From an uncultured Gemmatimonadales bacterium (lineage in GTDB: Bacteria; Gemmatimonadota; Gemmatimonadetes; Gemmatimonadales; GWC2-71-9), in assembly GCA_963821525.1 (NCBI GenBank), contig CAWGED010000006.1, positions 1 to 64,000 of the forward strand: 64,000 nucleotides of DNA, in the 5' to 3' direction. A program made the position numbers and the translations under genes. Positions within the stretch are counted from its first letter, which is position 1, and every line of letters starts with the position of its first letter. The notes under the pieces are model-generated. The model had not been told where the DNA came from. It did no database searches and saw only the letters and a program-made list of their open reading frames with translations. Below, piece after piece: positions 2,566-64,000 of the stretch.

Positions 2566-2735
2566 GACGTGAGACGTGAGAGGTAGCAAGGGAGACGGGG
2601 AGCGAGAGCAACACCTCATCCCGAGCGCAGCGAGGGACCTAGCCTCCTAACCCAGGCGCCAATACCCAAGACATCAGATCTCGGCGTTCGCCGTTCCCCG
2701 TCTCCCGTCTTCCGTCTTCCGTCTCCCGTCTTCCC
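2566..2735. repeat. Intergenic repeat cluster (GTGAGAC and CCGTCT(C/T) heptamers plus a REP-like unit)
   Basis: Heptamer runs; CCTCATCCCGAGCGCAGCGAGGGACCTA at ~2614-2641. Confidence 0.8.
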
Positions 2736-2745
2736 AGAGGTCCAC

Positions 2746-3408
2746 ATGGGAATCTCTGACGCTCCGCGCGATTATCGAACGCTCATTGCCGCAGCCAGTC
2801 TCATCGGGGGCCCGCTTCTGATGAGCATCGGGGACCTTATTCACCCCGAAGAGCGAATGAACTCGGCTGAGCAGATTGCAATCCTCGTAGATCACGCCTC
2901 GCGCTGGTACCGAGCACACCTGCTCCTCTTCATCGGCATGATGCTATCGATTCCGGGGCTCCTCGCGCTCAGCAGCATCACGGCAGAGCGCAAGCCGGCA
3001 GCCGGCTATGCGGCACGCATCCTTACTCTGATCGGGGCCGCCGCCCTCGCCTCTATTTTTGTGGCCGAGATGCTGATCGGGCGGCTGGTGGCGGACGGCG
3101 GTGACACCGCTGCGGCTACACATCTGCTGGACATCACGTTATCGGGGCCGATAGTCGCCGCCGTCATTCCAGGTCTGCTGGCATTTTTCGTTGGCATCGC
3201 TGTCTTCGCCGGTCCCCTGCTGAAGGCCGGCGGCAAACTGCGCTGGATAGCCGCGCTCTATTCGATCGGAGCCCTGCTGATTCTGGCGGAGATCGTCTCC
3301 GCCCAGGTCCTTCTCAGCCAAATCGGAAACATCCTGATCTTCTGTGGGGGCACGGCGACGGCTTGGCTGATCCTTCGGGGGGAGATTCGTCTGCAGATCG
3401 CGGTGTAG
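2746..3408 (+). CDS. Hypothetical integral membrane protein (several TM segments)
   Basis: Intact 220 aa ORF, GAGG RBS, multiple hydrophobic stretches. Confidence 0.75.
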   Translation: MGISDAPRDYRTLIAAASLIGGPLLMSIGDLIHPEERMNSAEQIAILVDHASRWYRAHLLLFIGMMLSIPGLLALSSITAERKPAAGYAARILTLIGAAALASIFVAEMLIGRLVADGGDTAAATHLLDITLSGPIVAAVIPGLLAFFVGIAVFAGPLLKAGGKLRWIAALYSIGALLILAEIVSAQVLLSQIGNILIFCGGTATAWLILRGEIRLQIAV

Positions 3409-3591
3409 GGCGGAGAGGGGGAACGCCAGCGAGGACCGGCCGTCGGTGTGGTCGTACCGCTCCCTATTTTGTCATGCGAGGTCCCGCGGGGCCGAGCAAT
3501 TTGTCCGGTGTCCTTTTAAAAGTGCACAGTAGCCGCTGAGATTCTTCGGTCCGCCCGCTCCCGCAATGTCCGCCTCTCCGCCTCGTGACGC

Positions 3592-3713
3592 CCCGACCTA
3601 TGGGGTCACAAAATGCAGCCCATCCCTCAGATTCTGTAACTCCCGGTAGTAGTAGTAGGGCCGTCGGTTGCCTGCCCTTGAACCGGAGTGGCTTGAGAAA
3701 CGCGATTTCCTCC
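3592..3713 (-). repeat. Diverged duplicate (copy A) of the last ~120 bp of the XRE regulator gene
   Basis: Aligns to 6051-6171 with ~6 substitutions and 1 indel; encodes ..FLKPLRFKGRQPT..YYYRELQNLRDGLHFVTP*. Confidence 0.92.
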
Positions 3714-5588
3714 GCTCATACGGGAGCCGCGGGTCGACCGGAACGCAGCCGGCATACGCAGGTGACGCCGGCTCCGTTCGTTTCCGGCTACAGGGGATCC
3801 CCGAGAACAGCGTGCACTGGTTGCGAGGCCTGCCAGTTCGCGCAGCCGTGCCGTTCCGGACGCGTCGCCCACCTGAAACGGGACGAGCGCAACACGCCGT
3901 GCCAGGTCGTTCGTCACTCTGCGGATCAGTGCGACTTCGGCATCGGCCCGTTGCCTTAGCACGGGATCCGTCGGCCGTGCTGCCCACAGGCTGGCGTTGA
4001 TGACCCATGCGAACGGTTCGATTCCCGCACGGCGCACGTCCTCTTGCAGCGCCTGCGCCTCGAGCACCGGGGTCGTCTCCGGAAGCGTGACGATCAGCAC
4101 CTTTGTCAGATCGGCATCACGCAGCATCATGAGCGGCGTAACGACGTTCGGCTGGCCACGCGTTGGCTCGTGTGGCACCAGCTGTCGATGGAATGAGCCG
4201 GCCGCGTCGAGCAGCCGGAGCGTGTGGCCGGTCGGCGCGGTGTCAACAACGACCAGCTCCCGTTTCGCGCGGAACACGATCTTCGAGAAGGCCACGAACA
4301 CTGCGATCTCGTCATAGCACGGGGACTGAAGTTCCTCGTACACGAGGGCACGGTGTTCGGCATCGAGGCCTTGCGATCTGTTGGCAAATGCCTTCTCCCG
4401 ATACTGGCGAGCCTCCGCTTCAGGGTCGATACGGCTGACGGTCAACCCTGGTACATCCATGCCTAGCGTGTCTACCAGATGTGCAGCCGGATCAGTCGTC
4501 GTCAGCAGCACGGAACGGCCGCGATCTGCGATCGCGAGCGCGATCGTGGCGGCGATCGTCGTCTTGCCCACCCCGCCCTTGCCCATGACCATCACCAATC
4601 CGTGATCGCGCCCAGCGAGTACCTCGATGAGGGCCGATAACGATGGTATTGCGGGGACCTCGACTTCCCCCGCTCCGCCCGGTGTCCGCTGTCGCCCCCC
4701 ATTCGGCTCGGCCAACAAGGCCCGCACTGCCTGCAACCCCACCACGTTGAAGCCGCGCATCGGCACTTCGATACGCGGTAGTGCGCGAAGGCCGGCCGGC
4801 ATGTCAGCCAGGGCCTGCGCGGCCCGCCTCTCGACGGCCAGCGCGACCTGATCGGAGCGGTCCGCCGCGCGGAACACGGCGTTGACGACCAGGAGCGGGC
4901 TCTCCATGCCAAGCGCGCCGAGCTCGGTGCGGGTACGTTCGGACTCCAGAAGCGCCACGCGATCGGGCCTCGTGACGAGCACGAGGGTAGTCGCGTGCGC
5001 ATCGCCCAGCGTTCGGACGGCCTCTTCGTAGCGGGCCTGCTGGGCCTTCAGCCCGGCGAGCGGCCCCAGGCAGGAGGCACCGGTTGCGCTCATGTGAAGA
5101 AACCGACTCCACGCGGCCGGCAGTTGCAGGAGGCGCAGCGTGTGACCAGTGGGCGCCGTGTCGAACACGACATGGTCCACCGATTGCATCAGCTCATCCT
5201 GGCCGAGCAACACGGTGAATTCGTCGAACGCAGCGACTTCGACCGTGCAGGCCCCGGCAAGTTGTTCCTCGAGCTGGGCGAGTTCTGCTTCAGGCACCGT
5301 GCCCCGGTAGGGGGCCATCGTCCGCTCGCGATACTCCCGCGCTGCCGCCTCCGGATCGATGTTCATCGCAAGCAGGCCTGGCACACCCGGAACGGGCATC
5401 GGCGTATTGCCGAGCGGCACCTCAAGCACTGCATCGAGGTTCGAGGCGGGATCGGTGCTCACCAGGAGCGTGCGTCGCCCCCGATCGGCTAGGCCGACCG
5501 CAGTGGCACAGGCCAAGGAGGTCTTGCCGACGCCGCCTTTCCCGGTGAAAAAGAAGAATCGGACCGGGTGCTCGAAGACGCGGCTCAT
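3627..5588 (-). CDS. arsA: Arsenical pump-driving ATPase ArsA; true stop probably ~3790 (the ORF reads through into copy A)
   Basis: Two GKGGVGKT P-loops, two DTAPTGH motifs, Cys in GACT, SCLGP and SPCY. Confidence 0.93.
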   Translation of the reverse strand: MSRVFEHPVRFFFFTGKGGVGKTSLACATAVGLADRGRRTLLVSTDPASNLDAVLEVPLGNTPMPVPGVPGLLAMNIDPEAAAREYRERTMAPYRGTVPEAELAQLEEQLAGACTVEVAAFDEFTVLLGQDELMQSVDHVVFDTAPTGHTLRLLQLPAAWSRFLHMSATGASCLGPLAGLKAQQARYEEAVRTLGDAHATTLVLVTRPDRVALLESERTRTELGALGMESPLLVVNAVFRAADRSDQVALAVERRAAQALADMPAGLRALPRIEVPMRGFNVVGLQAVRALLAEPNGGRQRTPGGAGEVEVPAIPSLSALIEVLAGRDHGLVMVMGKGGVGKTTIAATIALAIADRGRSVLLTTTDPAAHLVDTLGMDVPGLTVSRIDPEAEARQYREKAFANRSQGLDAEHRALVYEELQSPCYDEIAVFVAFSKIVFRAKRELVVVDTAPTGHTLRLLDAAGSFHRQLVPHEPTRGQPNVVTPLMMLRDADLTKVLIVTLPETTPVLEAQALQEDVRRAGIEPFAWVINASLWAARPTDPVLRQRADAEVALIRRVTNDLARRVALVPFQVGDASGTARLRELAGLATSARCSRGSPVAGNERSRRHLRMPAAFRSTRGSRMSGGNRVSQATPVQGQATDGPTTTTGSYRI

Positions 5589-42399: not shown

Positions 42400-45121
42400 G
42401 TGGCCCCACGCCGACGCGCGCTGATTCTGCTGCTTGCCGCTATTGCAGTGCTCTTCGCCTTCTTCCCGGCTTTCACTGCTCTTCTCACCGACTGGTGGTG
42501 GTTTCGAGAGATCGGGTACCAGATCGTCTTTACCCGAGAGCTGACCACCCGAGTGCTGCTCTTCCTGGCGGTGGGCGGCATCACCGCCGGTGTGCTCTAC
42601 CTGAATCTGCGGATCGCGCAGCGTGGGGTCGTCCCCTACCCGATCGTGCTGCGGTTGGGGGAATCGGCGCCACGGGTGGATGTCACGAGGGCGCTGCCCC
42701 GTCTGAGTCTGCCGGTCTCGCTGATTCTGGGCGTGCTGGCCGGCTTGGTTGCCACCGGGGCATGGGACTTGGTTCTCCGAGTGATCTACCGGACGCCGTT
42801 TGGGATCACCGACCCGGTCTTCTCGCGCGACATCGCATTCTACGTATTCACGCTGCCCGGCCTGGCGGCGGCGCTCGGGTTCCTGTCCACCCTCACCACC
42901 ATCTGTCTCCTGCTGCTGGTGCCACTCTACTGGTTGCGCCGCGATCTCGTCCCGGGCCCCGGCCTGCTTCGGGTCGAACCGTCGGCGGGCCTGCACCTCG
43001 CCGTCTTGCTGGCGGTGCTGTTCCTCCTCACCAGCCTCAGGCTATGGCTGGTGGACATCCCGAGTCTCCTCTATTCGAATACCGGTCCACTGATCGGTGC
43101 CAGCTACACCGATCTGCACGCCCGGCTCCCGGCTCTGCGACTCACGGCAGTTCTGGCACTCCTGGCCGGCGCCGCCATCCTGATTGGTGGGGTGCGGGGG
43201 CAGCTGCTCCGCTACGGACTCTTGGGCGTGGGGGGCTACCTGGCGGTGGCCTTCATCGGACGGGGACTCTTTCCATCGGCGATGCAGAAGCTGGTGGTGG
43301 CACCGACCGAGCTGACCCGCGAGACGCCCTACCTGCGGTATCACATCGCCGCCACCCGCCAGGCCTGGGGGCTCGACAGTGTGGAGACCCGCGAGCTGAG
43401 CGGCGAGGCCGACCTCACGCTGGCCGATCTGCGCACCAATGCGCCGACCATTGAGAACGTGCGGCTGTGGGACCGGGAGCCGCTGCTGCAGACCTTCGGG
43501 CAGCTCCAGGAGATCCGCACTTACTACGATTTCGTCTCGGTGGACGACGACCGGTACTGGATCGACGGGAAATACCGCCAGGTCTTGCTATCGCCGCGGG
43601 AGCTCAACGTCGGGTCGCTTCCGACCCGGACCTTCATCAATGAGCACCTGACGTTCACCCACGGAATGGGGCTCACCCTCGGACCGGTCAACCAGGTGAC
43701 GGCTGGCGGCCTCCCCGTGTTGTTCGTCAAGGACCTGCCGCCGGTCTCGACGGGGTCGCTGACCATTACCCGTCCCCAGATCTATTACGGCGAGCTCGCC
43801 AACGAGTTCGTGTTCGTGGCGACCCGGCAACGCGAATTCGACCATCCCTCGGGCGAGGAGAATGTTTACGCCGCGTACGACGGCACCGGTGGGGTCCGGG
43901 TTGGCAACCTCTTACGGCGCCTCTTGCTCGCCGTCCGCTTCGGCTCCTCGAAGATTCTGCTGTCCCAGGACATCACCAACGACAGCCGGGTGCTCTATTA
44001 CCGCGACATCATGGATCGGGCGAAGCGGGCGCTGCCCTTCCTTCGGTTTGATCACGACCCCTATCTCGTGATCAGGGCCGACGGGAAGCTGCAATGGATT
44101 CTCGATGCCTACACCGGGTCAGACGGCTACCCGTACGCTCAGCGGCTCGGCGACGGCACCACCTACCTCCGGAACAGCGTCAAGCTTGTCATCGACGCGT
44201 ACAACGGGTCGCTCGCTGCCTATGTGAGTGCCCCGTCTGATCCGCTGATCCGCACCTGGTCCCGGATCTTCCCTGGAATCTTCGCTCCGTTGGACAGCAT
44301 GCCGGCCGACCTGCGGGCCCACATCCGCTACCCCGACGACCTCTACCGGATCCAGACCAGCCTCTATACCACCTACCATATGGATGCGCCGGAGGACTTC
44401 TATCACCGGGAGGACCAGTGGCAGATCCCGGTCGTGCCGGAGGCCGACGCAGTCGGTGCCGTTCATGCGACACATCATCATGCGGCTTCCGGAAGAGGAG
44501 AAAGCCGAGTTCATCTACATGGTGCCCTTCACGCCGAGGGGCAAGGACAACCTGGCCGCCTGGATGGTGGCGCGGAATGACGGTGATGAATACGGCAGGC
44601 TTCGGGTGTACCGGCTCTCGCGGCAGAGCCTGGCCTACGGCCCGCAACAAGTTGAGAACCTGATCAACCAGAACACCCAGATATCCCAGCAGGTCTCTCT
44701 GTGGGATCAGCGCGGCTCCCAGGTAATCTGGGGCGACCTTCTGGTGATCCCGATCGAGAAGTCGCTGCTTTACGTCCAGCCGCTCTACCTGCAGGCGGCA
44801 GGCGGCCGGATTCCTGAGCTGAAGCGGGTGGTCGTGGCCTATAAGAATCAGGTGGTGATGCAGGAGACCCTGGATGGGGCCCTGACCGAGCTCTTCGGCG
44901 GCTCGACGAGCGCGGCTCGGAGTCAGCCTACCTCGTCCGACACTACCCGAGCGACCGGCGAGTCGGAGCTCCGCGCCATCCTCGCCGAGGCATGGCGCCG
45001 ATATCAGGCTGCGGTCGCGGCGCAACGGGCAGGCGACTGGGCGCGCTACGGCGAGGAAATCCGGCGGGTGGGCGAGTTGCTGGAACGGCTCGGCGGTGCA
45101 GAACAGGGAGGGCCGCGGTAG
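42400..45121 (+). CDS. UPF0182 family membrane protein (frameshift ~44450)
   Basis: TDWWWF, DPVFSRDIAFY, NVRLWD, QLQEIRTYYDF, HLTFTHG, DPYLV, GDLLVIP..LLYVQPLY..PELKRV. Confidence 0.93.
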
Positions 45122-47597: not shown

Positions 47598-47915
47598 CGC
47601 AGGGGCGACCCTTGTGGTCGCCCGGCCGATCAGGGATTCATCTGCAGGGGCGACCCTCGTGGTCGCCCGCCCGATCAGGGAAGAAGCGGGGAACGGGGAA
47701 CGGGGGCGTGGATCAGTGCCAGGGATGTAAGAGGAAACACCTCATCCCAGAGCGAAGCGACGAGGGACCTAATCTCCCGACCTTGGCGCCAAGGTCGGAG
47801 ATTAGGTCCCTCGTCGCTGCTCCCCTCGCAGCTCGGGGCAGGCTCGGGATGAGGTGCCACCGTTCACTCCTGCGCCGTCTCCCGTCTACCCCCGTTCCCT
47901 GTTCCCCGTTCCCTT
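47598..47915. repeat. Two GCAG/GTAG-type REPs and a long near-perfect hairpin
   Basis: GCAGGGGCGACCC..GGTCGCCC twice; GAGGGACCTAATCTCC-CGACCTTGGCGCCAAGGTCG-GAGATTAGGTCCCTC. Confidence 0.85.
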
Positions 47916-47933
47916 TTCCCGTTTTCTTACGGC

Positions 47934-49048
47934 ATGCCTCCCGTCCGCCCCCCCATCGAGCCCATGCTCGCCAAGCTCTCCGACGAGCTCCCCCCCGGCG
48001 ACGGCTATCTCTTCGAGCCCAAGTGGGACGGCTTTCGCGCGATCGTCTTCCGAGGTTCCCCCTCTCCCGCTAGGAAGAGTTCCCCCTCTTCCAGAGGACG
48101 ATCCTCTTCATCCAAAGCCGAGATCTCAAACCCCTCGACCGCTACTTCCCGGAGCTGCACGAGGCGCTGCTGAAGCTGCTGCCGGAAGGTTGTGTGGTGG
48201 ACGGGGAGATCGTGATCCCGACCGAGCGGGGACTCGACTTCGAGTTGCTGCAGATGCGGCTCCATCCCGCGGCATCGCGGGTGGCGAAGCTTTCAAAGGA
48301 GATCCCGGCCTCGTTCGTCGCGTTCGACCTGTTGGCGGCCGACGGCGAGAGTCTGATGGAGGAGCCGCAGGCGAAGCGTCGCGCCAGGCTGGAGAAGTTG
48401 CTCAAGAAGGCTAGGCCGCCGCTCTATCTCACTCCGATGACCCGGGACCGCGACACCGCGGCCGAGTGGCTCAAGGTGTTCGAGGGCGCGGGACTCGACG
48501 GCGTCGTGGCGAAGCGGGAGAAGAGCGCCTACCTGCCGGGTAAGCGTGAGATGATCAAGGTGAAGCACGCCCGCACCGCGGAGTGTGTGGTCGCCGGGTT
48601 CCGCTGGTACAAGACCGATCCCAAGGTGGTGGGTTCGCTGCTGCTCGGTCTCTATGATGACGATGGCGTGTTGCAGCACGTCGGGGTGACTTCTTCCTTC
48701 AGCATGGCGGAGCGAAAGAAACTCGCCGCCGAGCTGGAGCCGCTACGGAAGAATGCTCTGAAGGATCATCCGTGGCGGGAATGGGGCGGGGCGGGGGAAG
48801 GCGAGGGAAAGCGGATGCCCGGGGGACAGAGTCGCTGGAGTGCGGGGAAGGATCTCTCCTGGGAACCGCTCCAGATCGAGCGGGTGTGCGAGGTGAAGTA
48901 CGATCATCTCCAGGGCAGCCGCTTCCGCCACGCCACGACGTTTCTCCGCTGGCGGCCCGACAAGCCGCCCGAGGATTGTCGCTACGATCAGCTGGAGGTG
49001 GCGAAGGCGTACGCGCTGGAGAAGGTGTTCTCGACGGGTCAAACCTAA
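47934..49048 (+). CDS. ligC: ATP-dependent DNA ligase, LigC type (frameshift ~48100)
   Basis: PMLAK, EPKWDGFR, VDGEIV, FVAFDLL, GLDGVVAK, KVKH, GSLLLGLY, FRH..RWRPDK. Confidence 0.9.
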
Positions 49049-49659: not shown

Positions 49660-50975
49660 TTAGGTCGAAGGCTCACGTGTCCACCCCTCCGGCCACTTTG
49701 GCTCCTCGTCCGGATCCAACGCCTCCTGAACCGGCCGCAACTCCTCCGGCACGTGCTGCAGGTTCACCCGGATCCGATACCACGCCGAGGAGCGGCCCCG
49801 CATCTGATCCACCAGCACATCCGCCGGCTCCAGATGCGACGCCGCCTCGGGGTGACGCGCCTTCCAGCGTTCCATCCCCGCCAGCGCGTCTTCCTTCTTC
49901 AGTGCTCGACCAATCTCGATCAAAGGAAACTTCGAGGTCCGCCGCTTCGACGGTTGTACCCGCGGCGGCTCGCCCCGCTGCTTCCTATAATGTGGAGGCC
50001 ACGGAGCGTCGCCCTGTCCCTCGCGCTCCTGTTGGGCCGACAGCTCGAGCAGCCGGTCGAGTGATCCCGCTTCCTTATCTATCCCCGCGTGCCGGTCGCC
50101 CACCTTGGCAAACCGCCCCGGCATCGTCGCCAGGGTAAAGTCGCCCAGCTCGGCGCTGTCCACTTCGTCCCAATCGAGCGGCGCCGACACTCGCGCGTCG
50201 GGAGTCGGCCGCACCGAGTAGGCCGACGCCACGGTGCGGTCCTTGGCGTTCTGGTTGTAGTCCACGAACACTCCCTGCCGCTCCTCCTTCCACCACTTGC
50301 TGGTCGCGATGCCCGGCGCCCGCCGCTCGACCTCGCGCGCCAGGGCCAGCGCCGAGCGTCGCACCTGATCGAAGCTCCAGCGTTGTTCGATGCGGACGAT
50401 GACATGCATGCCGCGCGAACCCGAGGTCTTGGGCCAGCCGACGAGCCCCATGTCCTTCAGGGTCGCGCGGACCAGGTGAGCGACCTCTCGCACCTGGGTC
50501 CAGGGAACTCCGGGGACCGGATCGAGGTCTACCCGCAGCTCGTCGGGATGATCGAGATCGTCGGCCCGAACCGGATGGGGATGCAGCTCGAGACAGGCGA
50601 GGTTGGCCATCCAGGCGAGAGTGGCGGCGTCTCGCGGCACCACTTCATCCGCCCGGTTACCCGAGGGAAACTTCAGCGAGACTACTTCGATCCACGCCGG
50701 TCGTGAGTCGGCGCCCGCTTCTGATAGAAGTGTTCCTCCCCGATGCCATTGGGATAGCGCACCAGCATGTTGGGTCGCCCACCCGCCCCGCGCAGCGCCC
50801 CCTCGGCGACCGCGAGGTAGTAGTTGACCAGGTCGAGCTTGGTGTAGCCGGGGGTGGGGAAGAGGACTTTGCTGGGGTTGGTGATGGAGACTTCGTGGCC
50901 GGCGACCGTGAGGGATTCGGGGCCGGTCTTGGGCTTTGAGGGGGACTTTTTGTCTGAGGCGGGCTTCCGGGGCAT
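49660..50975 (-). CDS. Stand-alone LigD-type primase-polymerase domain protein (frameshift ~50715)
   Basis: ITNPSKVLF, TKLDLVNYY, RYPNG..FYQK, PDELRVDLDP, KTSGSRGMH, KEERQGVFVDYNQN, YSVR. Confidence 0.9.
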
Positions 50976-51009
50976 AGGATTTCAACCTACCCCCATCGGC
51001 ATTCCAGAT

Positions 51010-51463: not shown

Positions 51464-53018
51464 ATGGCTCATTCCGATCAGGAACTATTCGACATCGCCC
51501 GCCGCGCCGCGAAAGCGTTCGCCCACCTGCCCAACGTGCACTCCGTCGGGATCGGTGGACGGGAGCGCGCGGGTAAGCCCACCGGAGAAGTCGTCCTCAA
51601 GGTATTCGTTCGCCAGAAGCTCCCTGGCGATCGGCTCGATCCCGCCGCCGTCATCCCCGCGTCCTTCGAAGGAATCCCGACCGATGTAATCCCGGCCGGC
51701 GATCCCAAACGTCTCGCCCTGGTTTCGGGGGTCGAACCCAAGACTCAAGCCGAGTTCGATGCGGGTTTAGATGAGAGCCGGGAGCGGCCCCTCATGGGTG
51801 GCACCGAGATCGAGCCGGACGATGAGTCCGGCTTCGGGACTCTGGGCCTCATCGTCGAGGCATTAGAGGACAATCGCATGGTGTTCGCGGTGACCGCCTA
51901 CCATGTGGTGTTCAACACCCCGCTCCAGGAACGTCCCGCCGAAGTCGGCCAGCCCACCCCCAGCCATAGCTGCACCGCCTGTTGCCGTGGCGTCATCGGA
52001 AAGTTCTTCGGAGGCTATCACTCGGGGATCGTGGAGCCTCCGCCCGGTCCGAAGAAGCTCGACTACGCTCTGATCCGCCTCGATTCGGGGCTCGAGTGGC
52101 TGAACGAGATCAAGGAGATCGGGGTTCTCTTCGATTTCTACGAGCTCAAGGTGAGTGACGTCGTGCCGCTCACTTATCAGGTGCGAAAACGGGGATGCAT
52201 CACCCACCTGACCGGCGGCATTGTCCAGGCGATCGGCGTCGCCCGGCCCAGCAGAACCGGTGATCCCGCCTGGAGCCACCGCTGACGAAATCGATTCCCT
52301 CATGTCCGAACTCTTCAACGAGGAGTCGATCGCGATTCGGCCCAACCCTATCGCTGCCAATCCCGCCGCACCAGTCATCTTCGCGACCCACGGAGATTCG
52401 GGATCCGCCCTGGTCAATGATGACAATAAGGTCGTAGGACTGCTCTGGGGCGGACATCCAGAAGGACACACCGCGCCCACGGACCGCTTCGGCTACGGCT
52501 GGGGCGTGCCGATCACGTGGATAACAGACGACTGCAAGCAGCGGCTCGGCCTGACCATGCGAATTGTGCCGACCGCCGGCACCGGCATCGTCAACACGGT
52601 GCCTGAATTCGCCGAGGCAGGTTCCACCCTCCGCGCCGAGACCAGCCTGGAGCGGGATCTGGATCAGAGCGAGCGCGGCCGGTTGTTCCTGCAAGCCTGG
52701 CTCCGCCACTCGGACGAATTGAACGCAATCATCCAGAGCCAGCGTCGCGTCGCCACCGTCTGGCAGCGACACAACGGCTCGGCGCTGCTGCGGCTGGTGG
52801 CCCGCGCCCCGTTAGAGCCCAACCTGCCGTTGCCGACCGAAGTAGACGGACTCCCGGTACGCGAAGGACTCCAGGTCTTTCTCGATCAGATCGAGCGCTA
52901 TGCGAGTGATGAGCTCAAGCGGGATCTGAGCCGGCACCGCTCCCTGCTGCTCTCCTTGCCCGGTCACAGCTACACCGAAGTTCTGAGTCATTTGCATGGT
53001 GGAGACATTCTGCAATGA
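51464..53018 (+). CDS. Trypsin-like (S1/Nal1-like) serine protease 1 with N-terminal prodomain-like region and C-terminal helical domain (frameshift ~52240)
   Basis: Triad motifs TAYH, LDYALI, GDSGS; N-terminal VHSVGIG..LKVFVRQK..IP..FEGIPTDV; no signal peptide. Confidence 0.8.
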
Positions 53019-54471
53019 AGCGGGCCGATGCCGAGTACCGGGACCTGGTGAAGCGAGCAGCGGCGCGATTGGGGAAGCTGCCGGGGGTTCACAACATCGG
53101 CATCGGGGGGCGGGAGAGAGCAGGGCAGCCGACCGGCCAGCTGGTCCTCAAGGTCTATCTCGAGAAGAAGCGAAGGCCGGAGGAGATCAATCCTTCGGAG
53201 ATGATCCCGAAGGAGATTGAAGGCCTGCCGACCGATGTGGTGGAGACCGGACCGTTCCGCTTGAGCGCCGCTCAGGGCGTACCTCCCTTCCCGGAACAGG
53301 ACGCATACAAGCAGGGGGACTTCGGTCGCAAGCGTCCCATCAAGGGTGGGACCCAGCTCGGTGCCGAAGGGAGGACCGGCGATGCCGGGTACTCTGGGAT
53401 TCATGGCCCGCGTCACCGGCGACCCCAAGCGGATCATGGCGGTGACCTGCTTCCATGCGGTCTACCCTACCGGGGTCTTCGAGCTGAATCGAAAGTGCGG
53501 TCAGCCCAATCCTGAGGAGAGTTCTACCAAGTGCTGCGACAATAAGATCGGTCTCTGTGTGGCCGGCCACTACGACGCTCAGCTCGATGGGGCGCTGGTC
53601 CGGGTGGACGGAGGCCAGGAATGGGTGGCGGAGATCCATCAGATCGGTTTCATCAAGGGTCCCCACACCATTACAGCGGACGAGGCGGCCAGCCTGACCT
53701 TCGAGGTGCGCAAGCGGGGCCGGACCTTGCGGCTGACGGGAGGAACGGTGCAGAGCATCGTCGGCAACGGCACGATGAACGATCCGAATATGCCGGCCCG
53801 GCCCTTCACCAACGGCATTATCGTCAAGCCCAATCCATCGGACGTCAGCACGAATCCCTGGTTCCAGCAGGAAGGAGACTCCGGTGCAGCACTGGTGAAT
53901 GACAACAATGAAGTGACCGGAATGCTGTTCGGCCGCAACGCTCAGGGCTGGGGAATGGCGGAGCCGATCCAGGACATCATCGACAAGTTCCGCACTGACG
54001 ACGGGATCACCCTGGAGGTGGCCACCGCGACCAAACTGGGGCAGGTCCAGACCGTGCCCGCGGCCGCAGCCGACGACGCCGGGTCGGGACTCGAGATTCC
54101 TCCCGCTCTGCGCCGGCTGCAGCGCGATCTCGATCGGACCGACGAAGGGCGCGAGCTCATCTCCATCTGGCTGGAGCACTCGCGCGAGTTGAACCATCTG
54201 GTCCATCACGAACCCCGAGTTGCGGCGACCTGGCGACGCGCCGACGGACCTGGATTGTTTCGCCTGGTCATCAACCTGGTGGATGCGCCGGATCGTCCGA
54301 TGCCTCGGGAAATTCGCGGGGTGCCGGCCGAGCACGTGCTCGATGAGTTCCTGCGCGAGGTAGAGCGTTACGCCAGTCCGGAGTTACGGCAGGATTTGCG
54401 GCGGCATCGCCCGCTTCTGACCATGCCTGCCAGGTCGATCCTACGACGATCTCATGAATCAATTGCACTAG
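53015..54471 (+). CDS. Trypsin-like serine protease 2, paralogue of the preceding gene (frameshifts ~53375 and ~54435)
   Basis: TCFH, LDGALV, GDSGA; same N- and C-terminal domains; ATGA overlap. Confidence 0.8.
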
Positions 54472-54496
54472 AGGGGCAGGAGACGGGAACGCAGTC

Positions 54497-57400
54497 ATGG
54501 CGGGTCAAGCTGGTACACTGGAGCAGATGGCACTCGAGCTGGCCGGGATTCTCGGCCAGGTCGGTACCCGCATGCGCAGTTCCAATGTCCGGCAGACGCT
54601 GGGACTGCTCGGCGTTTACTTCCCCGAGCAGCTGCTGGCCAACGCGGGCTTCGTAACCGCCACTGATGCGACCGCGACAGCTGCCCAGGCTATCGAGCCC
54701 GAAGTAACGGCGCTGCTGGCAGCCATCGACGCCGACGATACCGTCCAGATCGCCGCACGAGTAGCAACCGTCCTGGCCAAAACCACTCAGACCCTCGCGA
54801 GCTTCGCCGACGTCGCCAACCAGCTGCAGGCAGTAGGACCCACACTCCCCGGCGTCACGGCCCAGCAAGTCAACGATCTGGTTGCCGGTTTTCCCCGGAA
54901 ACTCCTCGACCTCTTCATCGCTGAATCGCTCGACATCATCCCCGCCGTCGGGGGCACGCTCACCCTGCTCGGCGTGGTCGACAAGGTGGAGATCCCGGGA
55001 GACCCGGCGAATCCGACCAAGCCTACCTTCGACAAGACGGAAGTCCAGTTGGGCCGGCTGCTCGATCTGGCCAGCAAGCCCGGGCAGTATTTCACCACCC
55101 GCTTTGGATGGGGCAGTCCCGGCTTCGATGGAACCGTGCTCTTGCAGGCGATCGACCGGCTCTTCGAACGCCTGGATCTGCCGTCCACCTACTTCCCTCC
55201 GTCCGGCGGTCAGCCCGCCAAGCTCGACGCCTTTGCGTTCGACGTCACGGTGGATACCACCGTGTCCCCACCCGGTCTTCGCTTCGATGTCTTTCTTCCG
55301 ATCGGCGGAGACGTCGACCTTCCGATTCCGGGTCCGACTTCGGCCTGGGTGTTCCACGCGAAGTTCGATGGAAAGCTCGAGGCCGGCACCTCTGCGACGT
55401 TACGGCCTCCATCCACGATGGAGATCACCTCCAACGCGGAGGTCTCCGGTGAGGCGAAGCTGCTAATCGAGGGTCATCCCGCCTCGCCTTTCATCCTGTT
55501 CGGGAAAGCGGGTGGGAGCCGGCTTGAAGTTGCCAAGGTGGATGGCGAGGTCGGCGTTCGCTTCGACTGGAACAGTGTGACCGGGAAAGCGGCCGTGGAG
55601 CCGGAGATCGGCGCCTCGGTTAGCGGGGGCCGCCTGCTGGTGGATGGCAGCGAGGGTGACGGATTCCTCGCCCGGATTCTTTCCGGCATCAAAGATCGAC
55701 GCGCCATTCGATCTCGGGTTTACCTGGAGTCTGGACGGTGGGGTGCAGTTCAAGGGCAGTGGCATGCTGGAGATTCAGATTCCGCTCAACCTCTCGCTGG
55801 GTCCGGTTGACTTCATTCGCGCCTATCTCGGCGCCGGCATCAAAGACGGTACCGTTCCCGTAGAGCTCTCCGCGGCGATCTCGGCCGAAATTGGGCCGGT
55901 GACTGCGGTGGTAGACCGGCTGGGTCTCCTCGCCACGCTCTCGCTGCCTCCCGGCGGCGGCAATATCGGGCCGCTGCAACTCGATCTCGCGTTCAAACCT
56001 CCCACCGGTGTCGGGCTGGCCATCGATGCCGGGCCGATCAGCGGTGGCGGTTTCATCGCCTTCGACGAACCCAACGGCCGCTACGCCGGAGTGCTCGCGC
56101 TCGAAGTCTTCAGCGTGAAAGTGAGCGCGATCGGGCTCATCGACACCAGGCTGCCCGACGGACGCCCGGGATACAGCTTCCTCATCATCATCTCGGTCGA
56201 GTTCTTCCCCATCCAGCTCGGCTTCGGCTTCACCCTGAACGGCGTCGGTGGAATCTGCGGCATCCATCGCACCATCAATGCAGAAGCGTTGCGGCTCGGT
56301 GTGTACGCGGGAAGTCTCGATTCGATCATGTTCCCGCGCGATCCGATCCGGAATGCACCCCAGATCATCAGCGACTTGAGCCGGATCTTCCCGCCCGCGG
56401 AAGGCCAGTTCGTCTTCGGCCCGATGGCCAAGATCGGATGGGGCACGCCGACCCTGGTGGAGATTTCCCTGGGCAATCGTCATCGAGCTGCCGGACCCGA
56501 TCCGCATCGCGCTGCTGGGGCAGATCGCGGCGTTCTTCCCCGACCGCAGTGTCGCCCTGATCGAGATCCACATCGACTTCGTCGCGATGATCGATTTCGG
56601 GGCGAAGTTGCTTTCGCTGGACGCCACGCATCCGCGATTCGAGAATCGTGGTCTGGACCCTGACCGGAGACATGGCATTCCGGCTCTGTTGGGGCGATCA
56701 GCCCAACTTCGCCATCGCCTTGGGCGGGTTCCACCCGCACTTCCAGCCGCCTCCCGGTTTTCCCGCGCTTCGCCGCCTCACTGTCGGTCTGGGCGCCGGC
56801 GACTGGATCCGCATCACCTGCTCCAGCTATCAGGCGCTGACCAGCAACAGCCTGCAGTTCGGAGCCCGGGCCGAGCTCTACATCAACGCCGGTGTCTACG
56901 TCAAAGGCTGGATCGGCTTCGACGCCCTGATCATCTACTCACCGTTCTCGCTCGAGGTGGACATCTCCGCCGGATTGGAGATCGGCGCCGGCGGTGTGAA
57001 GATGGCCGGTGTCCATCTCGATGGCACGCTCACCGGCCCCACGCCGTGGCGGGTACGGGGAGAGGCGACGATCTCGCTCTTCTTCTTCGACATCTCCGTC
57101 GACGTAGACAAGAAGTTCGGAAGCGAAGAGAAGGCGACTCTCGACCCGATCGATCCCTGGCCTCCGCTGCGCGCCGCTCTCAAGGATCCCCGCAACTGGA
57201 CGGCGGTGCCGGCGACGGGAACGCTCAGTGTCGTCACCCTGGCACTGCCTCCGGGGGCCACCGCCACGGTGATCGATCCATCCGGCAAGATGACCTGGAA
57301 GGAATCGGTGGCGCCGCTCGACCGGACCCTCACCCGCTTCGGCAACAGCACTACGCCGGCGCCGGTCAAGTTCAGCGTCGACCAGGTGATCGTCGGCGTT

Positions 57401-57908
57401 GATCCCGCCGAGTACAGCGCGGTGAGCGACTTCTTCGCGGCGGCCCAGTTTGAGGAGCTGACCGACGCCGAGAAACTGTCCCGCGCTTCCTTCGAGAGAA
57501 TGCAGGCGGGCGTCGAAGTGGCGAGTGCCTCGGTACGAGCCGGTCCTTCCATCTCGGCGCCCCTCACCTACGAAACCGAGTATCGCGATCCGGAGCACGG
57601 ACCTGTGCTGGCGCCTCTGTTCACGGTGCCGCTCTGGATGCAACAGGGATTGTTGGCGAGCGGCGCCTCCCGTCAAGCCGGCATCATCGCAGCAGGGACC
57701 CGGGCCTACGCGGCTCCGGCCCAGCTGGCCCAGGTCGGAAGAGCAGTTCGTCGTCGTCTCGACCCTGGACCTCTCCATCAAGGGCGAGGTGACGGTGCCG
57801 ACCACCAAGGGCGCGGCCCTGCAGGCATTGAAGGAGTATGTCGCCGGGCGCCCGGGAGAGCGTGAGCAGTTCCAAGTCGTCCCGATGCACGAACTGGAGG
57901 AAGTGTGA
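54497..57908 (+). CDS. Large DUF6603-like protein (~1130 aa; helical N-terminus, long Gly-rich beta region)
   Basis: FKPPTGVGLAIDAGPISGGGF, PIQLGFGFTLNGVGG, GPMAKIGWG, GGFHPHF, ALTSNSLQFGA, FDALI, GPTPW across ORFs 54497/55644/56648/57525. Confidence 0.75.
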
Positions 57909-60900
57909 CGCTCACCGTCGGTCAGTTCGCCTATCTGCCGTGGCTCAGGACCGGTGTCGGCGCGGAGATCGCCCGGGTAGATGGCACCCCGGGCTCCGAG
58001 CCCCGGGTCACGTTGCCGATTCGGTGCGGTTCAACGGCGATCCCGGCCTGAGTGATGGCGTCACCCTGGAGCTGTTCGGTCCGGGCGAGGTCACCGGCTT
58101 CGATCCGAGGACCGTGGTGCGCACCTGGCCTAGACCAGGAGTCATGGATGCCGAGTGCAACTATTTCCCGATCATCGAATTCGATCAGGCCGATTTGCCC
58201 TGGCGCTTCACGCCGGCTCGGGCCACGACCGGAGACCGGCTTACTCCGTGGATCACTCTCATCGTTCTGGAAGACAGCGAGATCAAACGGCTGGTGCCGC
58301 CCAGTGGTGACGGGCATCTAGGCTCGGTCGAGATCAAGGATGCCAAGGCGCTGCCGCGCAGCCGGCAGCTCTGGGCCTGGGCGCACGTGCAGGTAAGCGG
58401 AGAAACCAGTGTGGATGCAGCCAAGGCTGCGCGCGCTGATGGCGGCCCGCTCGCCGGCAATCAGGTCGCGGCTGATCGCTCCGCGGCGGATGCAACCGAA
58501 TCACGGCTACACTGCGCTCCTCGTTCCCACTTTCAAGCGCGGCGTGCTGGCGGGTATGGGCCAGGATCCGGGGACCACCGATGCGCTGGCGCCGGCCTGG
58601 AGCGACTCGCCCGGCGGTCCGCTGACGTTGCCGGTGTTCTATCTCTGGCGCTTCGGTACCGGTCCCGATGGAGACTTCGAATCGCTGGCGCGGCTGATCG
58701 AACCCTTCGAGGCGCCCGACTCCATCGGGATTCGCGACATGGATGTATCCGCCGCCTCACCGGCATTCCCTCCGGCGAATACCGGCCCGCTTGGCCTGCG
58801 CGGCATGCTGACCGCGCTCAATACCCCGGATACGCGTGTGGAACCCTGCGGCCCGGCAGACTTGGATCGCCAAGTTGAAGGCGCTGCTGAATCTCCCCGC
58901 TGACCGGGCGGCGATTCCCAACACGCCGCGCACCGTTACCCCTCCACTCTACGGTCAGTGGCCGGCGGCCACCGACCGCTGCGAGGCCGACGTTCAACCG
59001 GAGCGACCGCTCTGGTTCCAGGAGTTGTCGGTCGATCCGCGGCTCCGGGTCGGCGGTGGTCTCGGCACTCGGGTGATTCAGGCCAATCAGGAAGCCCTGA
59101 TGGCGAGTGCATGGGATCAGGTGGAACGGGTGCGGCAACTGAATGAGGAGCTGCGGCAGGCGCAGCTCGCTCGGGAGCTGGCGCTGCGGCTTGCGTCTCG
59201 CCATGTGTTTGTCGACGGGACGCAAAATGTGCTCTATCTCTCCGCGCCGTTACATGCCAGAGTCATGGCGAGCCCAACCACCATACGCGCGGTCCTGAAT
59301 CAGAGTCCGGTTCCCCACGGCGTCCTTGAAGGTGCGTTCCGCCGAGTGTCCAGACCGCTGGGACCGATGGGTCGCCGTCAGGGTCGGCCGGAACAGTCGC
59401 CTCTGGTTCGTGGCTCACTGCTCGGTCGTCTGAACCGTGGCGACCTGAAAGCTGCCGAAGCCACCGGTTACATCACCCACTCTTCCCAGCATGAGCCGGG
59501 TGGCGGATCAGCCGATACCGGGTGGAGTGACCGACGCCGAAGTGCAATCCGCCCAGCAGCGGGCAAAGGGGATGCGGTTATTCGCCTGGCTGGTGCTGCT
59601 CGTGGCACTGGTGCTGCTCGTGTTCGGACTATGGGCCGTGGCGCTCGCTGTCGCCGCGGATCGGCGGCGGGCTTCAGGTTGCCGCCAATCGCCAGGCCGC
59701 CGCAAGCCAAGGCGCTCGCCGAACAAAAGTCGCGTGAAGACGCCGACCGCCATCGGAGAAGCGAGCGTTCAGCAGGGGCGGCTCTCGGGGGACCTGGTCC
59801 GCGACGTGGTGCCTCCGGCCAATTACGCACCTCTCGAAGCACCTGCCACCGGTGCGCCGCGCACGCTGCCGACGATTCCAGCCGGCTCGCCGGCTCCCTC
59901 GCCTGAGATCCTGGCCAAGCTCCGCCAGGCGTACGGCACCATGCTCGATCGCATGGCGCGGCCCACGACGCCGATCGCGACTCTGGTGGAAGCCGATCTG
60001 GACGGTATCGCAGCGACCCTCAAGACCAAGCTCGACCCCACCCTGACCATCGCGCAGGCATACACCGGACGCTACGCCCTCGCCGGCGCTGCAATCTGGG
60101 AGCCGTTCGATCCGCTGGAGCCGCTGCTCGCCGCGCCCGAATTTCCCCAGCCGATGTACCGGCCGCTGGCTCAGCTCGACAACGAGTGGCTGCTGCCGGG
60201 ATTCGACAAGATCCCGCCCAACTCCGCGACGCTGCTCAAGACCAATCAGCGAATGATCGAGGCGTACATGGTGGGCGTGAATCACGAAATGGCGCGCGAG
60301 CTGCTTTGGCGGGAGTACCCCACGACTCAGCGCGCGACCTATTTCCGCCAGTTCTGGGATACCGCAGGGTACGTCGCGCCACCCGGCGGCGGTCTCACTC
60401 CGGAGCAGCTCAAGGACATCGTTCCCATCCATACCTGGCGGCCGCCAAGCGATCTCAAGGAACACAGTCCCCGTCCCCCGGTGCCGGGCGGCGACTCCGA
60501 CTATCTGGTCCTCTTCATCCGGGGCGACCTGCTGCGACGCTACCCGAACACCGAGGTCTACGCCGTGAAGGCCAAGTGGGGTGGGCAGGTTGACGGCCGA
60601 GTCATCGATGACCCTGCCAACGATGTCGAGGCCAAAGAGAAGATCGCGCATCCGCTCTTCTCCGGCTTCATGGATCCGGACGCGAATTTCTTCGGCTTCG
60701 CTCCTTACTAAGGAAGAGGTGTTGGGCGATGGGATTCGGGACGGCGCCAAGCCGGGCTGGTATTTCGTCCTCGCCGAGCCTTCGGGGGAACCGCGCTTCG
60801 GACTGGACGAACCAGAACCGGATACCCCTGACTCCCAATTCGGTCTGCCGGTGAGTGGCGGCTGGAACAATCTCGGCTGGGCGAACCTGGCCGGCAGCCG

Positions 60901-61099
60901 GGCCACGTTGAACGATTTCCTGAGCCTGAATCTGGATGCTTCACTCCCCGACACAACGCTGGTCTCCGACTCCACGACGACGCGATGGCATGCGGACTCG
61001 GGTCCCGGACAACACGGTAGCCGCTCGTCCGATCTCGCCTACATCACGTTGCAGCGGCCCATGCGGATCGCGATCCATGCCTCGGAGATGATTCCCTGA
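57905..61099 (+). CDS. Large hypothetical protein (~1060 aa) with a central hydrophobic segment
   Basis: YLPWLR, IEFDQADLPWRFTP, LWAWAHVQ, GDFESL, ASAWDQ, NHEMARELLWREYPT..FRQFWD, RGDLLRRYP, PRFGLD; GTGA overlap. Confidence 0.75.
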
Positions 61100-64000
61100 T
61101 GGCTGCCACCCCGGTTGATCACCAGCGCGCCCTGCTCGAGGATGCGCGACGCGAGCTCCGTCGCGCCAGGGTCGCTGTCGCTGACGCAGCGGCAAAGTTG
61201 GAGGCGATCAGGCGGGACCGGGATCAAGACCTCCGCCGCCGCGGTGGAAGCCGCCCAGGCGAATGAGGAACGCGCGGCATCCGCGCTCGGCGCCATCCGG
61301 AGAAGAACCAGGGAGGAGTTGGCTTCGCTCGCGGTGGATCTCGGAAACTTTCTCACCCCGACGCCCGAGCAGGAAGTCGCGCGACTCTCCGCCGGCTATC
61401 CCATCGTGCTGCTTCCAGTTCGGATCGAGACCCGCTTTACGGCGGACCAGCTGCTGCTTCGGGTGTATCCCGACGACATCGTAGCCGACAGCTTCGAGCC
61501 GGAGCTGACCGACGAAGAAATCGCCGACGGTCAGGCCTATTGGGACGGGGCATGGCCCGGTGAGGCCGAAGAAAAGCTGGCGTGGAGGGCCATCGTTAAG
61601 AAGCTCGGTGTACCTCGGGGATCCTGGGTGGTCGAGGCGATGACTCCGAGCAATCTCGACAGCCGTCCGGCCGGTGCTCCCGCCTATCTGCCGCCGGCGC
61701 GGCGTGAATCGAGTTGGACTCGGCCGGCGGAAGCCCAGCTGCTTCCCGATCGGTGGCATGTCCTGCTCGATACCGGCGACGGCGAGCGAATCGTTTCGGG
61801 CTCTGCGATTCACGAGCCGCTGGCGCTCACCTTCTCTCCCGATCCCGCCGATCCAACCGATCCGCTGGGGGATGACGGACTCCGTCTCTCATCCGACGTG
61901 CGCTGGACGGTGGACTTCGATCAGGCCGAAAAGGTCGGGATGGGGATCCGGATTCCGCTTTCCAACGCCGAGCGCGGGATGGGCTTTACCCGAGTCATCG
62001 TGTTTGGCGTGAAGTCATCGCTGGCTCCCGACGTCAGTGCCGGCGGAATTCAAGAGCTGCTCGGACACCATCGCCATGGCCGCGGCTTCGCGTTGCTGCC
62101 CCAGGGAACACCGACCAATAACACCTCCGCCGCCACCACTCCGTTTCCACCCAGTGACGGCGACGGCCAGCGAAGCTTCGCGGTCGAGCGAACCGGACTA
62201 CCCGTCGTCGCCGGGCGCGACGGCCCCCGGCTGATCACGGCATTCGGATTGGCGAGCGACACCGCAATCCATCTCGATGGCGCCGACGGACGGGAAGCCG
62301 AGCGGGGCGCTGCCATGGCGCGGGCGCTCTGGCCGGTGACCTGGGGCTACTTCCTGACCGAGCTCATGAAGCCGGTGTTCGAAACGGACGACATCCAGAC
62401 CGCTCAAAGCTTCTTCGTGAATCATGTGAGAGGGCGGGGACCCTACTCCGCGTTTCGGATCGGCGGCACGCCGTATGGAGTACTCCCCGTGTCGAGTCTG
62501 CAGAGCTGGCAAGCGGCGCGGCAGAGCGATGCCGTTGACCGCGCGCTACCCTCGACCCTGCGCACGCTGAGAGCGATCTGGCTCCAGCAGAGCGGTCAGG
62601 TTCCCAGAGTGGGCCGGACTGGCGATCCCGATCAGGATCTGCTGGAAATCCTCGGTCTCGACGCGAGCACCCGCGAGGTCCGAGTCCGGCCGGTGCTGGG
62701 AGAAGATGCGACCTGGAATCTCTTCGGACTCTGGGGCTGGAACGAGCGCATGGACCGCCTGGCTGGATGCCGGTCAGGCCTTGGCCAACCAGGTCTTCAC
62801 CCTGATCGGTCATCCGGAATGGAGACCTCGAATTGCTCAGCTCAACTTCGACCCCAACGCCTGGCCGTTCCGCTATCAACTGGTGACCGAAGATCCGGTG
62901 TCGGAGACGCTGGGTCTCACCCCGAACTACATCGAGTGGATCCGCACCGCTTCGGTGCCGGACCTGATCGCCCAATCGGTTCCCGCCGACTGGGACCGGC
63001 CGGTCTCATTGCTGTATCGTCTGCTCCGCCACGGCGGCCTGCTCGAGTATCAGAACGCCTCCTATCTGCTCGGCGTCCGGTTCCAAACCGTTGAAGTGGG
63101 AGCCGCGGTGGAGCGGGAGATCGTCGGACTGCCCGGCACGGCGCAAGGTCCGAACCGGGTCGAGCAGATGATGCAGCCGATCGGACAGCTCAGCGGCTCG
63201 GCTCCGCTGCACACCTTTCTCTCCGATCCGGCCAACACTGCCATCATTCGCAGTCTGCTGCCCGATGAGCCGGTCGTCGGGTTCCGGGATGCGTTGGCCG
63301 CGCTGTCGGGCGCCAGCACCGCGGAGCTGGAGCGGCTGCTGGGAGAGACGCTGGATGTATCCTCCCACCGGCTCGATGCCTGGATCACCGGACTCGCGGC
63401 CAAGCGACTCGAGCAAATGCGCTCGGCTCGGCCACTCGGCTGTCATATCGGCGCCTACGGATGGGTTGAGAATCTCCGGCCCCGCCCCGCCTCGAGCGCG
63501 CATCCGGTCCGGCTCTCCGACGGGAGCATGGCGGCGCGGCAGGACGGGAACGGCGGCTACGTGCATGCGCCGTCGATGACCCATGCAGCCGCCGCGGCGA
63601 TTCTTCGAAACGGGTATCTCTCTCGAACCGGAGACGATCGCAAGAAGTACGCGGTGGATCTCTCGTCGGCCCGAGTTCGCGCCGGCCGGTTCGTGCTCGA
63701 TGCGGTGCGGGAAGGGCAGCCAGTCGGCGCGGTCTTCGGCTATCAGATGGAGCGGGGGCTGCACGATCATAATCTCGACAAATGGATCGCTCCGCTTCGG
63801 GCTCGCTATCCGCTGGTGGCCGGGAAATCCGGTGACCCCGAGGATTTCGATCCCAACGATCCGGATCAACCCAAGGAACACATCGCCGCCCAAAACGTGG
63901 TGGATGGTCTGGCGCTGCGCCGAGCCTATCAGGCAGGGGAGATCCCGTGGGGCCAGTTCGGTCTGCCCAATGGCGGGGCCGACCAGGCGGGCGTGGAAGC
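61099..64000 (+). CDS. Very large hypothetical protein (incomplete, runs off the window); N-terminal coiled coil
   Basis: TGATG overlap; LLPVRIETRF, LLRVYPDD, LLPDRW, WTVDF..AEKVGM, QGTPTNNT, GTPYGVLP, SHRLDAW, GGYVHAPS, AAILRNGY. Confidence 0.75.

Follow-up and report, generated by a model that had tools for sequence, protein, structure and literature searches.

What is encoded by the run of very large genes, headed by two serine proteases, that closes the first 64 kb of contig C6 (CAWGED010000006.1, positions 1-64,000, forward strand; hereafter the window) in the 4.3-Mb genome of an uncultured Gemmatimonadales bacterium (GCA_963821525.1), and what are the proteases for? A first-pass annotation of this DNA had described five co-oriented genes joined by four tight junctions, all of which are as it said, and had proposed a multi-protein machine not described before; this proposal is supported by the synteny, by the coupled junctions, and by natural fusions of gene 3 to gene 4 and of gene 4 to gene 5, and no characterised system matched it. 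The operon is longer than had been described, however, because a sixth core gene follows gene 5 beyond the window. We conclude that genes 3 to 6 are a real, widespread, and uncharacterised system without a known relative at the system level. The explanation we favor, with somewhat less than even confidence, is that they specify a leaderless, released, surface-binding particle carrying interchangeable enzymes, here two NAL1-type proteases.

Retrieving the sequence downstream, as had been advised, placed both the end of gene 5 and the whole of gene 6 on the same contig. The six co-oriented genes and their parts are as follows, with + denoting the forward strand.

51464..53018, +, gene 1: NAL1-type trypsin-fold serine protease, ~516 residues, with an N-terminal pro/ABD-like part, protease domain, Cys cluster, and helical tail; one frame break in the assembly
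51893..52406, +, gene 1 catalytic motif span: His 51893, Asp 52058, GDSG-Ser 52392
51971-51985, +, gene 1 Cys cluster
52647..53018, +, gene 1 helical C-terminal tail domain, ~120 residues, without a Pfam family
53015..54471, +, gene 2: NAL1-type protease, paralogue of gene 1, ~488 residues; frame breaks in the assembly
53445..53888, +, gene 2 catalytic motif span: His 53445, Asp 53583, GDSG-Ser 53874
53526-53537, +, gene 2 Cys pair
54108..54471, +, gene 2 helical C-terminal tail domain
54497..57908, +, gene 3 (core), ~1,140 residues: helical N-terminal part, then a Gly-rich beta meander with DUF6603
54497..56150, +, gene 3 N-terminal ~550 residues, whose phylogeny tracks the upstream enzyme class; candidate cargo adaptor
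55788..57469, +, DUF6603 (PF20248) domain of gene 3, in two pieces
57905..61099, +, gene 4 (core), ~1,062 residues: long helical arm between beta-rich N- and C-terminal parts
about 59575..59658, +, gene 4 hydrophobic stretch at the tip of a helical hairpin; exchangeable slot
61099..64000 in the window, ending at contig 65795, +, gene 5 (core), ~1,565 residues, with an N-terminal coiled-coil-like stretch
contig 65797-67578, outside the window, gene 6 (core), ~590 residues

Genes 1 and 2 meet at ATGA (53015-53018), genes 2 and 3 are separated by 25 bp (54472-54496), genes 3 and 4 meet at GTGA (57905-57908), and genes 4 and 5 at TGATG (61097-61101). The hydrophobic stretch and the coiled-coil-like opening (the latter judged by eye) had both been noticed in the first-pass annotation and are indeed present. 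A promoter and terminator scan gave signals no commoner than chance (at or below), and in two metatranscriptome runs 17 and 23 of 30 bins were covered by shallow contigs, which may stem from DNA or from relatives.

Indels split all six operon genes in this assembly. We take these frame breaks to be mostly assembly errors, because i) the gene pieces cover the family profiles end to end and are single copy in the genome; ii) a sister genome, L015 (an uncultured Gemmatimonadales metagenome-assembled genome, or MAG, with 94-96% DNA identity), carries genes 1, 2, and 4 as whole frames, although it has breaks of its own in genes 3, 5, and 6; and iii) in two independent metagenome runs, from soil or rhizosphere, the short-read contigs are unlike the window at ten breaks (12 of the 35 indel rows listed), nine of which coincide, exactly or to within a few bases, with differences seen in L015 as well. 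The L015 frames and the short-read contigs thus disfavor a true pseudogene, if not for every break.

Searching GTDB genomes with an alignment of gene 4 gave at least 578 relatives among 597 candidate stretches, of which the best 80 were kept; the relatives span 12 named bacterial phyla and haloarchaea. Genes 3 to 6 all lie on one strand in 58 of the 59 loci of at least 18 kb, in the order 3-4-5-6, the exception (L040) being rearranged; the conserved gene 3-4-5 order for which the first-pass annotation had suggested a neighborhood survey is therefore present, with gene 6 added. The same gene set is found on plasmids of haloarchaea, Streptomyces, Rhizobium, and Nocardia, and the gene 6 profile has matches in 5,599 clusters at 50% identity. 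Cultured strains have whole copies too: plasmid 1 of Gemmatirosa kalamazoonensis KBS708 (L011) bears one with twin proteases, some frames of which also look split, and Chitinophaga filiformis (L036) one with PhoD. Within the phylum of the window its occurrence is patchy (4 of 201 genomes matched, one of them marginal and without other core genes, leaving 3 clear cases); the core was not found in the one genome of the same genus that was searched, and it is almost absent from viral contigs (1 match, at a contig end).

Gene 3 belongs to the DUF6603 family, as had been suspected, with two matches to PF20248 of 191 and 186 bits (E 4e-56 and 2e-54) against a gathering cut-off of 27, and whole gene 3 relatives reach E about 1e-133. 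Genes 4 to 6 have no match in Pfam, NCBIfam, PHROGs, PADLOC, or PDB sequences, and the ESM Atlas returned solely unnamed or DUF6603 clusters. Two sequences (P0001 and P0276) fuse gene 3 to gene 4, and two others (P0281 and P0273) fuse gene 4 to gene 5. The core proteins are Cys-poor (0.13-0.35%), and paralogy among the core genes was considered and rejected (profile-profile probabilities of only 0.1-27%). We were unable to find a paper under DUF6603 or PF20248, or on bacterial NAL1 or CFI-box, or by descriptive query, in a literature search that excluded subscription papers and supplements, so that a description under a different name may exist. Some copies are rearranged or have unusual neighbors: L164 has three proteases directly before genes 6 and 5; a Nocardia plasmid copy (L225, 21949-25659) has a subtilase after gene 6 and a short gene 3; and a Pvc16-type contractile-injection gene follows gene 6 in three Chitinophaga loci (L033 18644-19273, L036, and L051).

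Genes 1 and 2 are about 40% identical, and are bacterial relatives of rice NAL1, judging by their profiles, with a chymotrypsin-fold domain and its triad. The first-pass annotation had called them trypsin-like with intact catalytic motifs, and the His, Asp, and Ser columns are invariant in all 21 aligned relatives. Against solved structures the family profile matches rice NAL1 (7Y77) at E 4.6e-24 and the best non-NAL1 structure at 3e-6; NAL1_N matches reach E 5e-7 in relatives and are weak in gene 1 itself (E 0.065). In NAL1, according to PMC12012508, an N-terminal domain (residues 1-88) is followed by an ABD (89-172) and then by the protease domain; the protein functions as a hexameric cage, NAL1(88-458) being trimeric and longer forms hexameric. 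The profile alignment starts at NAL1 residue 115 of chain 8HAS and runs from the ABD region through the protease domain; only ~30 residues precede the matched part, and residues 1-88 have no counterpart. Thus the bacterial proteins have in common with rice NARROW LEAF 1 (PDB 7Y77, 8HAS, and 8PMG) the ABD, protease domain, and His-Asp-Ser triad, but differ in lacking the 1-88 part, in possessing an extra Cys cluster and helical tail, and in lying in an operon with giant proteins. The operon also places the family of the plant protease NAL1 in a bacterial setting.

The helical tail (~120 residues, no Pfam family) is also carried by subtilases filling the same slot before gene 3, and in this genome its profile matches genes 1 and 2 only. 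Of 99 tailed proteases, 72 have at least 3 Cys within 10 residues, among them all 11 subtilases (some frames being untrimmed at the start). A metagenome search based on the tail gave at least 128 loci, 123 of them confirmed by profile; among the matches listed, and where at least 1 kb downstream was visible, gene 3 starts within 100 bases of the tailed protease in 47 of 54 loci (44 of 51 contigs), a linkage count biased upwards because the search motif was derived from cassette-linked proteins. Among the other loci, one has genes 6 and 5 and two end inside another protease. An identity of the tail with CFI-box-CTERM (NF041770) was rejected, since 0 of 14 tails matched and the profile-profile probability was 3.5%. 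Two stand-alone tailed proteases, L123 (7581-8756) and L146 (2798-4933), each follow an uncharacterised gene that is rich in beta structure and matches nothing in Pfam; both L015 proteases (1313-4323) have matches (E 7e-28 and 7e-31) to phrog_20754, a phage family with the annotation protease; and a further NAL1-like protease frame, without the tail, lies ~14 kb downstream of gene 6 (C6 81649-82464, by eye).

The position directly upstream of gene 3 is an exchangeable enzyme slot. Its occupant could be assigned in 67 of the 80 loci (13 have no assignable upstream gene, and in seven close relatives the assignment was by likeness, not by scanning): NAL1-type protease in 13, PhoD-like phosphatase in 12, M64 in 11, S8 subtilase in 7, galactose-oxidase-like protein in 6, tyrosinase in 3, PLD in 2, M14 in 2, and an unassigned protein in 11. 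By type, this amounts to 13 NAL1-type proteases, 20 other peptidases (S8, M64, and M14), 23 non-peptidase enzymes, and 11 unassigned.

These contents bear directly on the proposal of the first-pass annotation that the proteases are dedicated maturases which cleave or activate the large proteins. The intact triads, the translational coupling, the location immediately ahead of gene 3 on 44 of 51 contigs, and the presence of peptidases of four families in 33 of 67 slots all speak for it; a non-peptidase enzyme fills 23 of the 67, and further upstream in several of these non-peptidase loci (~4 kb visible) there are unrelated regulators, reductases, and copper-chaperone genes. The linkage of proteases to the core that had been anticipated therefore exists for the tailed proteases, but most core loci have other slot genes, and maturation or triggering by the system's own proteases does not hold as a general rule, NAL1-type proteases being confined to 13 of the assignable slots. 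Because 23 loci have no peptidase in the slot, obligatory maturation is unlikely and the slot proteases look like cargo; we consider dedicated maturases very improbable.

Most of the slot enzyme families are normally exported proteins. A crude hydropathy test found a signal-like N-terminus in 1 of 39 slot proteins, and this was a conserved PhoD strand; the twin-arginine translocation (Tat) motif is absent from all 39; and no such signal is evident at the core N-termini, judged by eye. The first-pass annotation had seen no evident signal peptide in any of its five genes. Several slot genes have distinctive features or neighbors: the galactose-oxidase-like proteins of L038, L044, L076, and L093 end in CFI-box-CTERM (two scoring at the cut-off, the others slightly below it); the slot in L038 (DUF1326 only scanned), L039, and L044 comes after copper-chaperone genes of the DUF1326 and PpoB2 types; a Chlorobium MAG has an SpvB/TcB-like fragment (L064 1996-2559) just before its slot gene; and slot proteins L006 5936-8680 and L045 2321-4324, one of them in a haloarchaeon, show a weak C-terminal likeness, far below the cut-off (E 3e-10 and 4e-8), to the BTH_I2691 effector family of the type VI secretion system. 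A relationship of the L022 slot protein to the N-terminal extension of the gene 6 protein P0138 was rejected (E 0.69).

If the slot is exchangeable, where does the exchange end? FastTree trees of 200-residue windows for 45 loci in 12 enzyme classes (minimum 11 changes; 30 shuffles per tree; the gene 4 row of the near-identical L029 substituted for L030) need 13-15 class changes for gene 3 windows within residues 1-600, 19-22 for gene 3 windows from residue 500 onwards, 20-22 for gene 4 windows, and ~31 for shuffles. A smaller set of loci that includes gene 6 gives the same tree pattern, as does IQ-TREE (17 versus 24 changes). Identity to L015 is 88-92% in the proteases, 90% over the first 400 residues of gene 3, and 95-99% beyond. 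This shows a swap point inside gene 3, a new result of this analysis, with the N-terminal half exchanged together with the enzyme, and suggests that this half is a candidate cargo adaptor. Three plasmid copies without a directly upstream enzyme have a shorter gene 3, with 345-577 N-terminal profile positions unmatched; in a fourth such copy, L008, gene 3 is full-length. A complex prediction for protease 2 and gene 3 residues 1-430 of L015, run without controls, gave a median score of 0.23 against a mark of 0.32, which we count neither for nor against docking. Gene 3 also varies in length and at its far end: relatives of 1,450-2,740 residues have long N-terminal beta-rich extensions with a tandem-repeat look (repeats by eye), and many actinomycete gene 3 proteins carry a C-terminal Kelch propeller.

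The AlphaFold model of gene 4, built from L015 (98% identical; predicted local distance difference test, pLDDT, 78), has beta-rich ends with a long helical hairpin between them. Of 58 gene 4 proteins, 46 have the hydrophobic hairpin, flanked by basic residues, and 12 lack it; among 37 longer gene 4 matches it is found in 5. Its slot is occupied by FG-GAP repeats in P0275, P0285, P0289, P0298, P0304, and L009, and by two F5/8-C galactose-binding domains in P0291. The hairpin thus sits in an exchangeable tip slot, also a new result of this analysis. Among gene 6 relatives, P0230 has a ConA-like lectin insert, and others have Ig-like or lamin-tail domains. In the AlphaFold model of gene 6, like that of gene 4 of fair confidence (from L023, 44% identical; pLDDT 77), the first 47 residues, which are highly conserved, are unresolved when modelled alone and may fold on a partner. 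Foldseek searches of the PDB with whole-chain gene 4 and gene 6 models gave no match at E<=0.001, and the gene 6 model has no match among viral models; the best VIA Z values were 6.1 for gene 4 (a helical hairpin, 92 residues at a root-mean-square deviation of 4.6) and 5.8 for gene 6 (SAM-like helices, 63 residues at 2.6). As these searches were whole-chain, new folds are not proven.

The hairpin could also suit a structure that never leaves the producer: an export conduit, or a scaffold for display, with the hairpin in the cell's own membrane and the gene 3 beta meander as a groove or bridge. Leaderless enzymes would then be exported, or kept on the surface of the cell that makes them, to capture nutrients or remodel the envelope. 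We regard this as unlikely, if the most serious of the alternatives. The basic-flanked hairpin in 46 of 58 proteins, the long gene 3 relatives with their resemblance to a length-adjustable rod, the resemblance of the slot enzymes to an exoenzyme set, and the lack of immunity genes in the flanks are all in its favor; yet the loss of the hairpin in 12 of 58 and its replacement elsewhere by binding-type domains are unexpected for an essential anchor, the core is common to monoderms, diderms, and haloarchaea, and no AsmA/TamB family match was found in the core proteins.

Patchy spread (3 clear cases in 201 phylum genomes), the residence of several copies on plasmids near integrases, and the lack of signal peptides in slot proteins by the crude hydropathy test would also fit an intracellular conflict or defence complex, in which the core would detect invasion or damage at the inner membrane and activate a variable effector such as a protease, PLD, or phosphatase; proteases and PLD are frequent immune effectors. 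Such a complex is in our view distinctly improbable, in that PADLOC, which covers known anti-phage systems, matched 0 of 10 proteins, the core showed no domain of NTPase, nucleotide-signalling, or sensor type, and tyrosinase, copper radical oxidase with its copper chaperone, M14 and M64 cargo, and lectin tips fit it poorly.

Under the released-particle explanation, the four core proteins would bind one another to form one large particle; the enzyme would dock on the N-terminal half of gene 3, perhaps via the helical tail; the gene 4 arm would contact the target, through a membrane-inserting hydrophobic hairpin in this copy and lectin or propeller domains in others; the particle would exit without a signal peptide, by lysis or another route; and the bound target, whether competitor, prey, or polymer, would be attacked or digested by the enzyme. 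We wish to stress that several points weigh against this explanation: i) the best-scoring 80 of at least 578 loci are biased towards close relatives; ii) plain DNA linkage equally explains why the N-terminal half of gene 3 travels with the enzyme; iii) the hairpin may instead tether the complex to the membrane of the producing cell; iv) FG-GAP, Kelch, and Ig domains occur inside cells too; v) the gene fusions are one sequence each and possible read-through artefacts; vi) a tailed protease has no core gene downstream on 4 of 51 contigs; and vii) the 2-4 kb flanks hold no conserved lysis, secretion, or immunity gene, which leaves the exit route and self-protection unexplained.

A broader claim, possible but put forward with clear reservations, is that genes 3 to 6 define a new class of prokaryotic delivery particle: four giant subunits with undescribed folds, unrelated to Tc, contractile, or umbrella systems, would carry enzymes of at least eight families through a gene 3 adaptor and bear exchangeable membrane-inserting or lectin tips, in thousands of lineages from soil bacteria to haloarchaea, the present copy being loaded with bacterial relatives of NAL1, a rice yield protease. 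If the released-particle explanation holds, the system would be a widespread and unrecognised route for exporting and aiming folded enzymes without signal peptides.

The rest of the neighborhood is less informative. Directly past gene 6 (C6 68729-71427) come genes that, to judge by eye, encode a small protease of trypsin type, a regulator of LuxR type, and a fusion of an alpha/beta-hydrolase with LuxR; none of them recurs beside other copies. Upstream in the window, two convergent genes at 47854-49048 (+) and 49660-50985 (-) are presumably an ATP-dependent DNA ligase and a LigD-type primase-polymerase; both, and a membrane-protein gene at 42400-45121, look frameshifted.

How does the system compare with those already known? 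Gene 3 is a member of DUF6603 (PF20248), a family without described function. No contractile-injection or phage-tail homologue was found by PHROG matching of 10 core proteins, and a Pvc16 gene adjoins the core only in the three Chitinophaga loci. TcA, TcB (SpvB), and TcC (RHS) domains have no Pfam match in 28 core proteins, the four core profiles have no meaningful match among PDB sequences, and the fold-level comparison with Tc covered whole chains of the gene 4 and gene 6 models only; among umbrella-particle hallmarks, the core has no ALF family match and the 39 slot proteins no Tat motif. By sequence, then, genes 3 to 6 fall outside both the Tc toxins and the umbrella particles. The Tc (ABC) toxins (PMC10847048) have huge subunits, a part that contacts the membrane, and accessories that bind glycans; they carry an enzymatic payload that can be exchanged, and they are released by lysis. 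Our system would work alike in size, membrane element, binding accessories, and swappable payload, but its payload is a separate whole gene rather than an autocleaved RHS tail, and its flanks hold no lysis cassette. The Streptomyces umbrella toxin particles (PMC11062931) join trypsin-fold proteins and coiled coils with lectin tips and enzymes that vary, a multi-protein plan on which genes 3 to 6 would work alike; here, however, the range extends beyond actinomycetes, and the trypsin-fold proteins keep their triad and are themselves the variable part.

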